DNA of 28,877 nt from Limnohabitans sp. (GCA_023260735.1 JALQUL010000262.1:1-28877), one strand, 5' to 3'; counted from the stretch's first letter, positions 16,316 through 22,108 are shown. Made by a program: numbers and translations. The notes: a model not told the origin generated them from the sequence alone.

Positions 16316-17275
16316 CTACCAGTGAGGTTGTAAATTTTCTATGGCTTTAATATACATTTCGGCCACGTTAAAACCTTTTTGCTGGGTGATTTCTTGAAAA
16401 CCAGTGGGGCTAGTCACGTTAATTTCTGTGAGGCAGTCACCAATAATATCAAGTCCTACTAACATAAGCCCACGTTTTAACAGAATGGGCGCTAAGGTTT
16501 GGGCAATTTCTAAATCGCGCGGGCTTAGTTCTTGCGCAACACCTTTTCCACCTGCGGCTAAGTTGCCTCTTACTTCGCCACCTTGAGGAATACGCGCCAA
16601 GCAAAACGGCACGACTTCGCCACCAATTAATAAGACCCGTTTATCACCATCTTTGATTTGCGGAATAAACTTTTGCACCATAACGGTTTGCTCACCGTAA
16701 CGGTTAAGGGTTTCAATAATGGCGCCTAAATTAAGCCCGTTGGCAGGAACTCTAAAAATACCAGTCCCACCCATGCCATCAAGGGGTTTTAAAATAATGT
16801 CTTGGTGCTCTTGATGAAAGTCTTTAATGTCTTGCGCATTGCGAGTAACAAGGGTGGGGCTAATAAATTGTGGAAACTCTAAAATAGCCAGTTTTTCTGG
16901 ATGCTCACGCAGCGCCTGGGCATTGTTAAAAATCTTGGCACCCTCGCGGGTGGCTTGGCTTAATAAATGAGTGGCATAAAAAAATTCGGAATCAAAGGGC
17001 GGGTCTTTACGCATTAACACAGCATCAAATTGATCGAGTGCCTGAATGTTGCCTGTGGGATTGCCTTTTACTTTGTACCAGTGTGGACCTTGAGGAGTGA
17101 GTTCTAGTGCCAGCACTTGTGCGCTGACTTTCTGGCCTTGTTTCCAATGCAGCGTATTGACTTCACAGGCAAATACCTGATGACCTCTCGCTTGGGCTTG
17201 ACTCATCATAGCAAAGGTGCTGTCTTTATAGGTTTTAAAACTGTCTAAAGGATCGGCAATAAATAATAAATTCAT
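16316..17275 (-). CDS. gshB: Glutathione synthetase
   Basis: FIADP, KDST, LMRKDPPFD, EKL, KPLDGMGG, GDKRV, RGNLAAGG, GLDIIG, EINVTSPTG. Confidence 0.96.
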   Translation of the reverse strand: MNLLFIADPLDSFKTYKDSTFAMMSQAQARGHQVFACEVNTLHWKQGQKVSAQVLALELTPQGPHWYKVKGNPTGNIQALDQFDAVLMRKDPPFDSEFFYATHLLSQATREGAKIFNNAQALREHPEKLAILEFPQFISPTLVTRNAQDIKDFHQEHQDIILKPLDGMGGTGIFRVPANGLNLGAIIETLNRYGEQTVMVQKFIPQIKDGDKRVLLIGGEVVPFCLARIPQGGEVRGNLAAGGKGVAQELSPRDLEIAQTLAPILLKRGLMLVGLDIIGDCLTEINVTSPTGFQEITQQKGFNVAEMYIKAIENLQPHW

Positions 17276-17302: not shown

Positions 17303-19171
17303 TTAAATTTCAACTTTACTACCCATTTCTACCACAGAGTTGCTAGGTAGTTTTAAGAAGTCTGCAGCAGCACTGGCGTTAAGATGCATTTGAGCAAATA
17401 GCTTTTCACGCCATTGTGCCATACCACCACCAATAGTGGGAATTACAGAGTCACGAGAGAGGAAATAGCTGGTGCTCATTTCGTCAATTTCAAATTCTAA
17501 TTCGCGTAACTGCCTGATTGCACTGGGTACATCGGGGTCATTTTTAAAACCATAATGCAACTCGACTTGCCAGCAATGGTTGCCAAGCGTTTCTGTTTTG
17601 ATACGTTTTTCTAGATTAATCCAGGGCGTTTCATGGCTGACAACGGTAATGAATAGATTTTTTTCGTGTAGCACTTTATTGTGCTTTAGGTTGTGCAATA
17701 GGGCGCTAGGAACAGTGCCTTTTTCAGCACTTAAAAATATAGCGGTTCCATCGACACGAGTAGGCGGATGTACAAACACCATATCTAAGAAGTCTTTTAA
17801 GTTCATGGAGTGATCTCTTTGCGATTGAGCCAATAAGGCTCTGCCATCTCGCCATGTCATCATCATGATAAATATGAGCCCACCAATTGCTAATGGGAAC
17901 CAACCACCCGCAAAAAACTTGAGTAAGTTAGAGGCGAAAAAGGCTAGATCGATAATGAAGAAAATAGAAGTGGAGGCCATACATAGCCATAATGGGTATT
18001 TCCATGCATAACGAACCACAAAGAAAGTTAGTATGGTGGTGATGAGCATATCAGTGCACACTGCAATACCATAAGCGGCTGCTAAAGCACTTGAAGACCG
18101 GAACAAGGCCACCGCTAAAACAATGGCAACAAATAAGCCCCAATTGACTACCGGAATGTAAATTTGACCGGTTTCTTTGATGCTGGTGTGAATGATATTG
18201 AGGCGTGGTAAAAAGCCAAGTTGTATAACCTGTTTAGTAACGCTAAAAGCACCGGTAATGAGAGCTTGTGAAGCAATTACAGTGGCACAAGTAGCAAGTA
18301 CCACAAGTGGCACTAAAGCCCAACTAGGAGCCATTAAATAAAATGGGTTTTTAACTGCCCCTGGGTTGGCTAATAACAAAGCCCCTTGTCCAAAATAGTT
18401 AATGACTAAGGCGGGCATGACTACAAAAAACCAAGCTAATCGAATAGGCTTTTTACCAAAATGACCTAAATCGGCATATAGGGCTTCTGCTCCAGTGACG
18501 CACAATACTACCGCTCCTAAAATGATAAAAGTGGTAGAGGGGTTTTCCCAAATAAAACGCGCTGCATAAATAGGGTTAAGTGCCCATAAAATGACTGGAT
18601 TTTGCACAATATGTGACAAACCCAAAATAGTGAGTACTAAAAACCAAACCAAGGTGATGGGACCAAATAATTTACCAATACCACCAGTGCCTCGTTTTTG
18701 ACTGGCAAATAACACCATCAAAATAGTGAGTGTTAATGGCATGACCCACGCTTTAAAATTGGGTGAAACTACCTCAAGACCTTCTACTGCCGATAAGACT
18801 GAAATAGCGGGGGTAATGACCCCATCGCCGTAAAATAAGCAGGTACCAAAAATACCAATTATCAACAACCATTGTCGTAGTTGTGGCTTATCTTTGACAG
18901 CCTGAGAGGCCAGTGCCAGCATGGCAACTAAACCACCCTCACCTTTGTTGTCAGCGCGTAAAACCAAAACCACATATTTAATTGAGACAATGGCAGTTAT
19001 GGTCCAAAAAAACAAAGACAAAATACCGTAGATATTGTCTTGGGTAAATGGCACATGGCCTGAGTTAAATACCTCTTTAAGAGCATATAAAACACTGGTT
19101 CCGATGTCGCCATAGACAACACCAACGGCAGCCACCACAAGGGCTAAGGATGAGCTTTTAGATTGAGACAC
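17303..19171 (-). CDS. kup: KUP/HAK/KT potassium uptake protein
   Basis: [79 protein letters not shown]. About 12 TM segments; GTG start. Confidence 0.97.
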
Positions 19172-19436: not shown

Positions 19437-20720
19437 TTATTCAAAATCTTCGCCTTGTGGGTCAGAGTCTTCAAGTTCATAGCTACCTGCTAGCATAGCC
19501 AATCGTGCTATTACCCCATACATATAAAATCGATTAGGGGAGTGTTCTCCAGGGGCCTCACCTAAGCGTGGTAAGTGAGCTTGAGGTGCAAAAGCCAGTG
19601 GTACAAAATGTGAGCCAGGTGCCGCCAACCCTTCATCGTCTCGTAGCTGCGCATGAACACGGTAGTAACCACCCACCACATATCGGTCAATCATGTGTAC
19701 GACAGGTTCAGCCACCACATCGTTAATTCGCTCGTGGGTACGTATGCCTTCTTGCAAAATCAGCTCACCTTTAAATGGAGTGGCTTGATTGCTATTGGGA
19801 ATTAAATGTAGATTTTTTAAATCTTTAGTGTCTCTAAGGGTTAAAAAGCCTCTTGCTTCGGGGCCTTGATTTGCTTTGACCACAATAAAAGGTTTTTCAT
19901 CTATGCTGTATTCACGGTATTTGCGGCGAATTTTTTGTAATAAGGCATCGACATGACCTTCTAGTGCGTCACAGTCGGCATTTTTACTTAAATCAAGTTC
20001 ACCACAAAAACTATAAAGTGGATTAATCAACCAAGGGTCAATATTAAGAAGTTTGGCGAGACGTTTGCTTAACTCATCGTAGGCCTCATAGTGCTTGTTA
20101 CGGCGTCTTAAGGCCCAGCTAGCATGTAGAGGAGGCAATAGGTATTGCTCGTGTAAGTCTTCTAAAATGCCCGGAATACCTTGACTTAAGTCGTGGTTCA
20201 ATAAAATAGTGCATGGATCGAAGTCTTTGAGCAACAAACGATGTTTGGTTCTTTGTACCGGTTCAATAGTGAGTTGCCGACCATTTTGCAAGGTAAAGTG
20301 TTGAGTTTTTTCAATGGCGGGGTCAATTGAACCCAATTTGATATTCAATCCGGCCATATTAAAAATTCGCATGAGTTGATCAAGGCCATTTAAATAAAAT
20401 GAATTATTTAAACGGTGATCATGAATCAATAACAAATTTCGTGCTTCAGGACAAATTTTCTCGATGGCGGCCATCGCACTTTGTACTGCTAAAGGCATCA
20501 TGTCAGGCGCTAGGCATGACCAAGCACCTGGGAAAAAATCAAGATCTACGGGAGACAATTTAAAACCAGAATTGCGAATGTCAACTGCACTATAGAAGGG
20601 CGGAGTGTGCTCCATCCATTCCAATCTAAACCAACGCTCAATGGCTGGCATAGAATCTAGAACACGCTGTTCAAGGTCGTCAATTGGCCCACTTAAGGCA
20701 GTAACAAGATGAGGAACCAT
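19437..20720 (-). CDS. gshA: Glutamate--cysteine ligase GshA (divergent betaproteobacterial ATP-grasp type); many conserved motifs appear substituted
   Basis: MVPHLVTAL, IERWFRLEW, TPPFY.AVDIRN.GFKL.PVD, DPWLINP, KIRRKY.EY, QEG, AEPVV, RFYMYGVIARLA. Clustered with kup and gshB. Confidence 0.88.
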   Translation of the reverse strand: MVPHLVTALSGPIDDLEQRVLDSMPAIERWFRLEWMEHTPPFYSAVDIRNSGFKLSPVDLDFFPGAWSCLAPDMMPLAVQSAMAAIEKICPEARNLLLIHDHRLNNSFYLNGLDQLMRIFNMAGLNIKLGSIDPAIEKTQHFTLQNGRQLTIEPVQRTKHRLLLKDFDPCTILLNHDLSQGIPGILEDLHEQYLLPPLHASWALRRRNKHYEAYDELSKRLAKLLNIDPWLINPLYSFCGELDLSKNADCDALEGHVDALLQKIRRKYREYSIDEKPFIVVKANQGPEARGFLTLRDTKDLKNLHLIPNSNQATPFKGELILQEGIRTHERINDVVAEPVVHMIDRYVVGGYYRVHAQLRDDEGLAAPGSHFVPLAFAPQAHLPRLGEAPGEHSPNRFYMYGVIARLAMLAGSYELEDSDPQGEDFE

Positions 20721-20827
20721 AAAAATGAGTCTGGTTGAGTTGCCTTATCTTAAAGACAAGGCATGAATTCAAAAATGGTCTTAAGGCTTGGTATTGACAT
20801 TGCTATGGCAAGATCAAATTGGGGCAC

Positions 20828-22108
20828 TTAAGTTCGGATTTCGCCTTGTCCCATGACGATGTATTTTAATGAAGTGAGTCCCTCTATACCCACAGGGCCA
20901 CGGGCATGGAATTTATCGGTGCTAATACCAATTTCGGCACCAAGACCATATTCAAAACCATCGGCAAAGCGAGTGCTGGTGTTGACCATAACGCTAGCCG
21001 AATCGACTTCTGTTAAGAAGCGTTGTGCATGACTGTGGTTTTGAGTAATGATGGCATCGGTGTGATGACTCGAATAATGGTTGATGTGATGAATCGCCTC
21101 GTCTAAACTTTGCACCACTTTAATACTAATAATGGGTGCTAGATATTCTTCAAACCAATCTTTTTCTTGAGCATTGATGAGTTTGATATAAGGAATTTGT
21201 GACAATACCGCCTTGGCTTTTGGGCAGACTCTCATTTCTACTTCTTTGGCCATGAATATTTTGCCAATAAGAGGTAAAAATTGGGCTGCTACGCTTTGGT
21301 TCACCAACAGACTTTCGGTGGCATTGCAAGGGCTATATTTTTGAGTTTTAGCGTTGTCTACTACTTTGACTGCCATGGCTAAATCGGCGGTGTCATCGAC
21401 ATACACGTGGCAATTTCCATCTAGGTGTTTAATCACCGGCACTTTGGCTTCTGCGCTAATGCGCTCAATTAAACCCTTGCCACCCCTTGGAATAATAACA
21501 TCGACGAATTGTGGCATGGTAATGAGTGCACCTACTGCCGCTCTATCGGTGGTAGGAATCAGTTGAACAGCGTTGCTAGGCAAGCCCACATCTTTTAAAG
21601 CTTGTTGCACTAATAAGGCCAGCGCTTGATTGGAGTGAATGGCTTCAGAGCCACCTCGTAATATACAGGCATTGGCACTTTTAATAGATAGGCTAGCCGC
21701 TTCAATGGTTACATTGGGACGTGACTCGTAAATCATGCCAAACACACCAATAGGCACTCGCATTTGACCCACTCTAATACCACTGGGTACTTGGCGCATA
21801 CCCTTTACTTCACCAATAATATCGGGCATATGTGCTAATTGTTCACAACCTTGAGCGACGGTCTCAAGAGCGCTGGCGCTTAACTTTAATCGATCTAGCA
21901 TAGGGCCAGTTAAACCGGCCGCTTGTGCTTTAGCTAAATCTTTGTTGTTTTCGTTGCTTAATGAACCTAAGTTTTCTCGTAGCAGGTGAGCTAAGCGGAG
22001 TAGGGCTCGTGAGCGCAGGTTAGCAGAGGATTTGGCCATTAAAGCCGAAGCCTGACGTGCTTGTTGACCCATTTGGGTCATTAATTCGGCAACTGCAGAG
22101 GTAGTCAT
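20828..22108 (-). CDS. proA: Gamma-glutamyl phosphate reductase
   Basis: [37 protein letters not shown], catalytic [33 protein letters not shown]. Confidence 0.97.

Follow-up and report, generated by a model that had tools for sequence, protein, structure and literature searches.

A divergent ATP-grasp GshA with rewritten signature loops in a Limnohabitans-like genome that also encodes an E. coli-type GshA

Introduction

What does a glutamate-cysteine ligase gene still encode when it keeps the length, the invariant residues and the neighbours of its family but has changed the motifs by which that family is recognised? The question is raised by a gshA gene in the window, the whole 28,877-nucleotide stretch of Limnohabitans sp. 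DNA analysed here (GCA_023260735.1 JALQUL010000262.1:1-28877). A first-pass annotation had described this gene as a full-length, unbroken frame with eroded signature motifs and as a possible pseudo-ligase, the pattern of change being ascribed to lost or altered catalysis and not to neutral decay. The founding member of the family, gshA from Acidithiobacillus ferrooxidans, complements an E. coli gshA mutant (Powles et al. 1996, as cited in 10.1101/2021.06.29.450459). A literature search on the ATP-grasp GshA family and on two gshA genes in Comamonadaceae returned no paper on such erosion or on its link with a second gshA.

Family Assignment and Genomic Context

The variant ATP-grasp-type gshA lies on the minus strand (19437..20720) and encodes, in an uninterrupted frame of 427 residues, the protein P0001, so that the reading of an intact full-length gene holds. 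In profile searches P0001 scores 475.6 bits with PF08886 and 418.7 bits with TIGR02049 (cutoff 293.9), the latter over profile positions 1-402 of 403; TIGR02049 is the NCBIfam equivalog 'gshA_ferroox' and PF08886 the Pfam family GshA. The match covers the whole family profile at a score below that of canonical members, which range from 550 to 615 bits, the query and its variant relatives falling at 328-425 bits. The GC content of the window is about 42%, and the host assembly is 76.5% complete in 481 contigs. Upstream of the gene, positions 20721-20760 contain no clear Shine-Dalgarno sequence before the ATG, the upstream stretch reading ...ccagactcattttt ATG; family members share the N-terminus MVPHL, so the start codon is right.

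Downstream of gshA and on the same strand lie (i) kup (17303..19171, minus strand), a K+ uptake transporter gene matching NF008015 at 736 bits and TIGR00794 at 570 bits, and (ii) gshB (16316..17275, minus strand), the glutathione synthetase gene, whose product matches PF02955, PF02951 and, at 429.9 bits against a cutoff of 272, NF003573. This score agrees with the earlier description of gshB as intact, kup separating it from gshA. Upstream lie proA (20828..22108, minus strand), which serves below as a reference for selection, holA, lptE and leuS. The order gshB-kup-gshA-proA-holA-lptE is the same in the relative G001, and the linkage to gshB, with gshA, kup and gshB on one strand, recurs there and in other genomes of the family. 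In G011 the gap between gshA and gshB would hold about one kup gene, and the two genes are directly adjacent in other families of the order. An apparent deletion of gshB in G002 proved to be a run of 100 N and no real deletion.

Profile, fold, invariant residues and synteny all place the protein in the ATP-grasp GshA family, and its gene is the positional ortholog of ATP-grasp GshA in a Limnohabitans-like Comamonadaceae genome of low GC content. We class it as a divergent variant of the family, for which the equivalog annotation is to be treated with caution.

Changes in the Signature Motifs

The consensus given in the first-pass annotation is correct, fitting both the canonical relatives (118 close homologs) and PDB 3k1t, the solved member of the family from Methylobacillus flagellatus, and each of the motif changes quoted there is found at the residues of P0001 to which it was assigned. 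The query departs from all the family signature motifs searched for, namely VDTNLFPGGFNNL, PENHTRN, NNDLS, KADxGTYGMG, LNRKxRNKM and ENLN. A family alignment was built from 92 full-length cluster representatives (clustered at 50% identity), the most distant at about 28% identity. Conservation of at least 80% holds for 67 of its columns, and the query departs from 22 of these, by 21 substitutions and the deletion of one lid residue; for the median representative the count is 4. Among the 118 close homologs, 258 columns are at least 95% conserved, and 37 of them are changed in the query. The motif changes are real and well above the family background, and they fall in four loops, at residues 58-70 and 100-106, in the lid (284-316) and at 364-366.

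The D-x-N strand of the N-domain and its following loop (aa 58-70; 20511..20549, minus strand), canonically VDTNLFPGG[FW]NNL, read VDLDFFPGAWSCL in the query, with the substitutions T60L, N61D, L62F, G66A, N68S and N69C; columns 61, 68 and 69 are hypervariable among eroded lineages. The canonical PENHTRN becomes HDHRLNN (aa 100-106; 20403..20423, minus strand), and columns 103-106, near-invariant in canonical lineages, reach entropies of 1.6-2.9 bits in eroded ones. The substitution P100H (codon 100, 20421-20423) is found in the genome of the window only, the proline, 99% conserved among close homologs, being kept in G002, whose sequence is 99% identical, and in P0003. NNDLS becomes NHDLS (aa 175-179; 20184..20198, minus strand), where N175 and D177 are kept and N176H is common to G001, G002, P0003, P0004 and P0103.

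Among the most changed parts are the Gly-rich loop and the basic segment of the stretch that comprises the ATP-grasp lysine strand and a minimal lid (aa 282-316; 19773..19877, minus strand). The Gly-rich loop, canonically KADNGTYGMG, reads KANQGPEARG at aa 282-291 (nt 19848-19877), retaining K282, G286 and G291 and carrying D284N, N285Q, T287P, Y288E and G289A, so that GTYGMG is replaced by GPEARG with the loss of G289. Further along the lid, the basic segment LNRKxRNKM becomes LHLIPNSNQ and its basic residues are gone. The fourth loop changes from DENLN to DEGLA (aa 362-366; 19623..19637, minus strand): both asparagines of ENLN are lost, L365 and G369 are retained, and N366 is hypervariable in eroded lineages. 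The many replacements of asparagine, by D, H, S, C, G or A, do not look like simple AT drift, since asparagine codons are AT-rich and the genome is GC-poor.

Conserved and Variable Columns in Eroded Lineages

When 25 eroded genomes are compared, the 67 conserved columns split cleanly into those that are still invariant or nearly so and those that have become hypervariable. The first group comprises W30, Y43, D47, R49, G52, K54, D59 (likewise fixed across eroded lineages), P64, L70, Y109, N175, D177, P196, W202, R205, H210, D228, W230, K282, Q323-E324-G325, E338, P339, G350, R354, L365, G369 and E415. The second group, at 1.5-2.9 bits, comprises N61, N68, N69, H103-N106, T287, Y288, N305, R309, a lid lysine and N366; G201 (1.4 bits) and G286 (1.2 bits) also vary. 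These hypervariable columns form four loops, following the D-x-N strand, at PENHTRN, in the small lid between K282 and the hinge, where deletions are frequent in eroded lineages, and at ENLN. Averaged over the 67 columns, entropy is 0.68 bits in eroded and 0.08 bits in canonical lineages, whereas the remaining columns are alike in the two (0.88 and 0.91 bits, respectively).

Within the clade of the window (G000, the genome of the window, with G001, G002, P0003, P0004 and P0103), the states L60-D61, D101-H102-R103, H176 and K-A-N-Q-G are held in common, even at 55-68% identity. Wide sharing of the variants among family members had been named in advance as an argument against the first-pass reading. 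This applies in part: the same states recur within this small clade and erosion is family-wide, but the substitutions themselves are lineage-specific. The gene of the window thus fits a pattern seen throughout the family and is no isolated case. Four database representatives of the family (P0138, P0163, P0170 and P0189) contain stretches that look frameshifted or garbled, with Arg/Pro-rich or Cys/Val-rich runs; they make degenerate members seem more numerous than they are and are unfit for building a consensus.

Predicted Fold and Retained Core

In a family alignment of 61 sequences 14 columns are invariant, and the query keeps every one of them (R49, K54, Y109, N175, P196, R205, K282, Q323, E324, E338, G350, R354, G369 and E415). 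An AlphaFold2 model computed from this alignment reaches a pLDDT of 91.2 and a pTM of 0.91, with dips only in the lid at about 300-320 (block means of 60 and 77, and values below 50 at 308-310) and at about 380-395. Its top Foldseek match is 3k1t (TM 0.86, E-value 4e-49), followed by YgiC/YjfC, eukaryotic glutathione synthetase and glutathionylspermidine synthetase, all of them ATP-grasp ligases of glutathione metabolism. On the strength of this confident model, which agrees with 3k1t, the variant protein is predicted to keep the fold of ATP-grasp GshA.

The lysine strand, the hinge Q/E pair and the acidic residue after the hinge, as expected for an ATP-grasp enzyme, are present as K282, Q323/E324 and E338. 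Profile alignment with GshB gave nothing in the global mode of hhalign and a probability of only 12.5% in the local mode, in which K282 falls on the ATP-binding lysine strand and the GTYGMG loop on the Gly-rich loop of GshB, both within the GshB segment LKPLDGMGGTG, Q323 on the adenine hinge (VQKFI in GshB) and the ENLN loop on 'RGNLAAGG' of GshB. The roles given to these residues are tentative, since this alignment is weak and the remainder draws on general knowledge of ATP-grasp enzymes. The Gly-rich loop and basic lid of such enzymes usually clamp the phosphates of ATP, and changes as heavy as those observed there could mean that catalysis has been lost.

Selection and Evolutionary Rate

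Between G000 and G002, gshA shows 71 synonymous and 8 nonsynonymous differences, giving a dS of 0.31, a dN of 0.008 and a dN/dS of 0.026; this value, which for the clade of the window comes from this one pair, G000-G001 being saturated at synonymous sites, is in the range of the neighbours compared with G002 (proA 0.016, leuS 0.031 and kup 0.038). The claim that the changes are not neutral decay is borne out by this comparison. Because purifying selection on the variant gshA is as strong as on housekeeping genes, the gene appears to do something useful. Across eight close pairs of eroded genomes the median dN/dS is 0.040, and across 374 canonical pairs it is 0.068.

The frame is intact in G000, G001 and G002, despite an identity of about 57% between G000 and G001, and no indel was reported inside it in four environmental metagenome or metatranscriptome runs, three of them RNA libraries. 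Contigs from the RNA libraries cover gshA, one of 1299 nt spanning nearly all of the gene with 45 substitutions; they give a weak hint of expression, DNA carry-over being possible. The ratio of GshA to GshB distance is 1.15 in G000 and 1.64 in G001, compared with 0.45-0.84 in canonical genomes, so the GshA lineage of the window has evolved about twice as fast as GshB predicts.

A Second, E. coli-Type gshA in the Same Genome

A search of the genome for a second gshA, proposed in the first-pass annotation, found one of the non-homologous group-1 type (PF04262) outside the window, on contig C245 (G000:C245:10628-12145; L014:1468-2988). The encoded protein is intact, with 506 residues and a TIGR01434 score of 501.5 bits against a cutoff of 393.3; the GC content of the gene, 41-42%, matches that of the window, and orthologs are present in G002 (97% identity) and G001 (61%), as expected of a gene native to the genome. 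The gene adjoins a CoA-transferase-like gene. Its product was considered as a GshF and rejected at 243.7 bits with the bifunctional model (cutoff 425), and a search of the genome, 76.5% complete, for YbdK/GCS2 (PF04107) gave no match. Across the family, PF04262 scores form two bands, at about 440-477 and 500-545 bits, which suggests two group-1 lineages, possibly of separate origin.

Co-occurrence of the Two Enzymes across the Family

Both enzymes were searched for in 401 genomes of the family, of which 252 carry PF04262 and 149 lack it. In 135 of the 401 genomes the score of the ATP-grasp GshA is reduced, as defined by a best E-value above 1e-165 and calibrated to roughly at least 9 differences. 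PF04262 is present in 122 of these (122/252), a figure that includes some gene fragments, G216 being one, and about 75 cases in assemblies of at most 100 contigs. The 13 reduced scores in genomes without PF04262 comprise (i) ten that on inspection are contig-end fragments with canonical motifs, (ii) G220 and G427, presumed to be fragments from their E-values of about 1e-50 and highly fragmented assemblies, and (iii) G105, the sole full-length case among the 149, which is mild (530.7 bits; 6 of 67 differences, all in the lid) and comes from a genome that is 94% complete. Fisher's test of the association between PF04262 and erosion gives a P value of 1e-29, which is raw and ignores phylogeny: in a tree of 84 GshA sequences the eroded copies belong mostly to a single clade and can be explained by about five changes of state, and an independent-pairs test on this tree has 3-6 usable pairs and no power. 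G213 is tallied as canonical and PF04262-negative, and its removal changes nothing.

Closer comparison of 36 relatives gives the same picture at the level of residues. In the 16 without PF04262 the count of differences over the 67 columns is 0-3, also in copies that are only 45-50% identical to the query, and in 11 of the 20 with PF04262, the genome of the window included, it is 8-27; a further sample of 50 genomes behaves in the same way. Within single genera, full-length copies of g48 score 598 bits without PF04262 and 443 and 364 bits with it, and in g102 the values are about 614-621 bits without and 534 bits with PF04262. Some erosion is seen in about 30% of the sampled family genomes, and about half of the genomes with canonical copies are without PF04262. 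Redundancy by itself does not compel divergence, since in many genomes the two enzymes occur together and the motifs are canonical.

Four genomes with PF04262 have no match to ATP-grasp GshA (G139, which is 97% complete, G147, G256 and G357) and would represent complete displacement of the ATP-grasp enzyme. In the complete genome G008, the group-1 gshA match (G008:C1:1775589-1777081) is split over two frames of 510 and 169 aa and the ATP-grasp GshA is canonical (2 of 67 differences), which may be the reciprocal outcome, decay of the group-1 enzyme.

Comparison with Known Systems

The variant resembles the ATP-grasp GshA family in length, fold (TM 0.86), invariant residues and position near kup and gshB, and differs from canonical members in having 22 of 67 columns changed in four loops, a score lower by about 190 bits, and a genome in which it is not the only gshA. 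With group-1 GshA (PF04262, TIGR01434) it shares the nominal reaction, but not the fold, that of group-1 GshA being glutamine-synthetase-like; the group-1 enzyme is the likely source of redundancy and no relative.

Among the Foldseek matches, GSS22 and GSS30 from Globodera pallida (PDB 5oeu and 5oet) are likewise ATP-grasp ligases of the glutathione pathway, and we take them to have been duplicated or redundant and then to have diversified in the active site with the fold kept. They are, however, eukaryotic secreted paralogs of the second enzyme of the pathway, and the resemblance would be one of evolutionary mode, with no homology of function. The next-best structures after 3k1t, YgiC/YjfC and glutathionylspermidine synthetase (PDB 7uk8, 7uk6 and 2io8; TM about 0.42), are ATP-grasp carboxylate-amine ligases acting on glutathione-related substrates, but their sequence identity to the variant is only 8-14%, and the likeness observed is one of structure.

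Discussion

The reading that we favour, with a probability of roughly 0.55, is that the gene is a released positional ortholog of ATP-grasp GshA, kept for an altered, probably ATP-dependent ligase activity; it is favoured because a nucleotide- and metal-binding core has been kept under constraint like that on housekeeping genes. The group-1 GshA would make the γ-glutamylcysteine that the cell supplies to GshB, and the constraint so lifted would have allowed the four surface loops of the ATP-grasp enzyme to be rewritten while its ATP- and metal-binding core and its fold stayed fixed. The likeliest present job would be ATP-dependent carboxylate-amine ligation with an altered substrate preference or altered kinetics, the variant presumably no longer supplying γ-Glu-Cys and, judging by the residues retained, probably still being catalytic. 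The comparative pattern points to signature loops that are indispensable where ATP-grasp GshA is the only route to γ-Glu-Cys and free to change where group-1 GshA is present; that eroded copies are almost never found without PF04262 suggests that they cannot carry glutathione synthesis alone. A bolder extension, which we consider rather doubtful, is that the clade of the window makes a different γ-glutamyl or related small peptide or thiol in place of γ-Glu-Cys, and that in dozens of Comamonadaceae genera ATP-grasp GshA has been the starting point for new ligases wherever a group-1 GshA takes care of glutathione synthesis.

The protein might instead be a working γ-glutamylcysteine ligase, a second isozyme in which the loop changes are tolerated or compensated and only regulation is altered, for example feedback inhibition or affinity. 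We regard this as unlikely, though it is the best placed of the alternatives. A score above the curated TIGR02049 equivalog cutoff, the retention of every invariant residue and of the gshA-kup-gshB arrangement, and strong purifying selection would all be natural for such an enzyme, as would N61D, by which a metal-binding side chain is preserved. Against it stands the distribution of the eroded copies: the full-length copies examined in genomes without PF04262 carry only 0-3 changes in the 67 columns, also where identity is down to 45-50%; erosion without PF04262 amounts to one mild case in 149 genomes; and about half of the genomes with canonical copies do without PF04262, which suggests that it is the eroded copies that are insufficient on their own.

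Less probable still is a pseudo-ligase that has lost catalysis and is retained because its role is structural, regulatory or ligand-sensing. The lid, which normally closes over the ATP phosphates, is degraded more than any other part of the protein, and this is the strongest argument for lost catalysis, to which the GPEARG loop, the missing basic residues of LNRKxRNKM and the loss of both ENLN asparagines belong; selection is strong nevertheless, as a non-catalytic role would allow. The ATP-grasp lysine, the hinge Q-E pair, E338, R354, D47, R49, D59 and E415 are, however, fixed across eroded lineages, K282, Q323-E324, E338, R354 and E415 among them forming the strongest argument against lost catalysis, since nucleotide or metal chemistry is hardly dispensable where such core residues stay fixed. 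The label of pseudo-ligase goes further than the data for a protein that keeps 14 of 14 invariant residues, including the ATP-grasp lysine, hinge Q-E, E338, R354 and E415. The wider proposal, of altered or lost catalysis and no decay, agrees with the dN/dS of 0.026, the second gshA and an erosion seen essentially only alongside PF04262; by the pattern of retained residues, an active ligase with changed substrates or kinetics would be at least as likely as a dead enzyme.

Neutral decay after redundancy, in an unrecognised pseudogene, would fit the presence of a group-1 gshA, the acceleration relative to GshB and the lack of a clear Shine-Dalgarno sequence before the ATG, but is highly improbable, being contradicted by a dN/dS of 0.026 at a dS of 0.31, by frames intact in G000, G001 and G002 at about 57% G000-G001 identity and free of reported indels in four environmental runs, and by a confidently predicted fold.

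A released ATP-grasp GshA with altered ligase activity, as favoured here, bears on annotation as well as on biology. Automatic annotation calls such genes glutamate-cysteine ligase by way of the equivalog cutoff, and for Comamonadaceae many such assignments may be incorrect or tell only part of the story. The family amounts to a natural experiment: unrelated enzymes of two kinds occur side by side for a single step, and in one of the two the signature loops have been lost again and again under strong selection, so that the residues determining γ-Glu-Cys formation in the barely studied ATP-grasp GshA family become directly testable. The eroded lineages may also hold new ligase activities in abundant freshwater bacteria.
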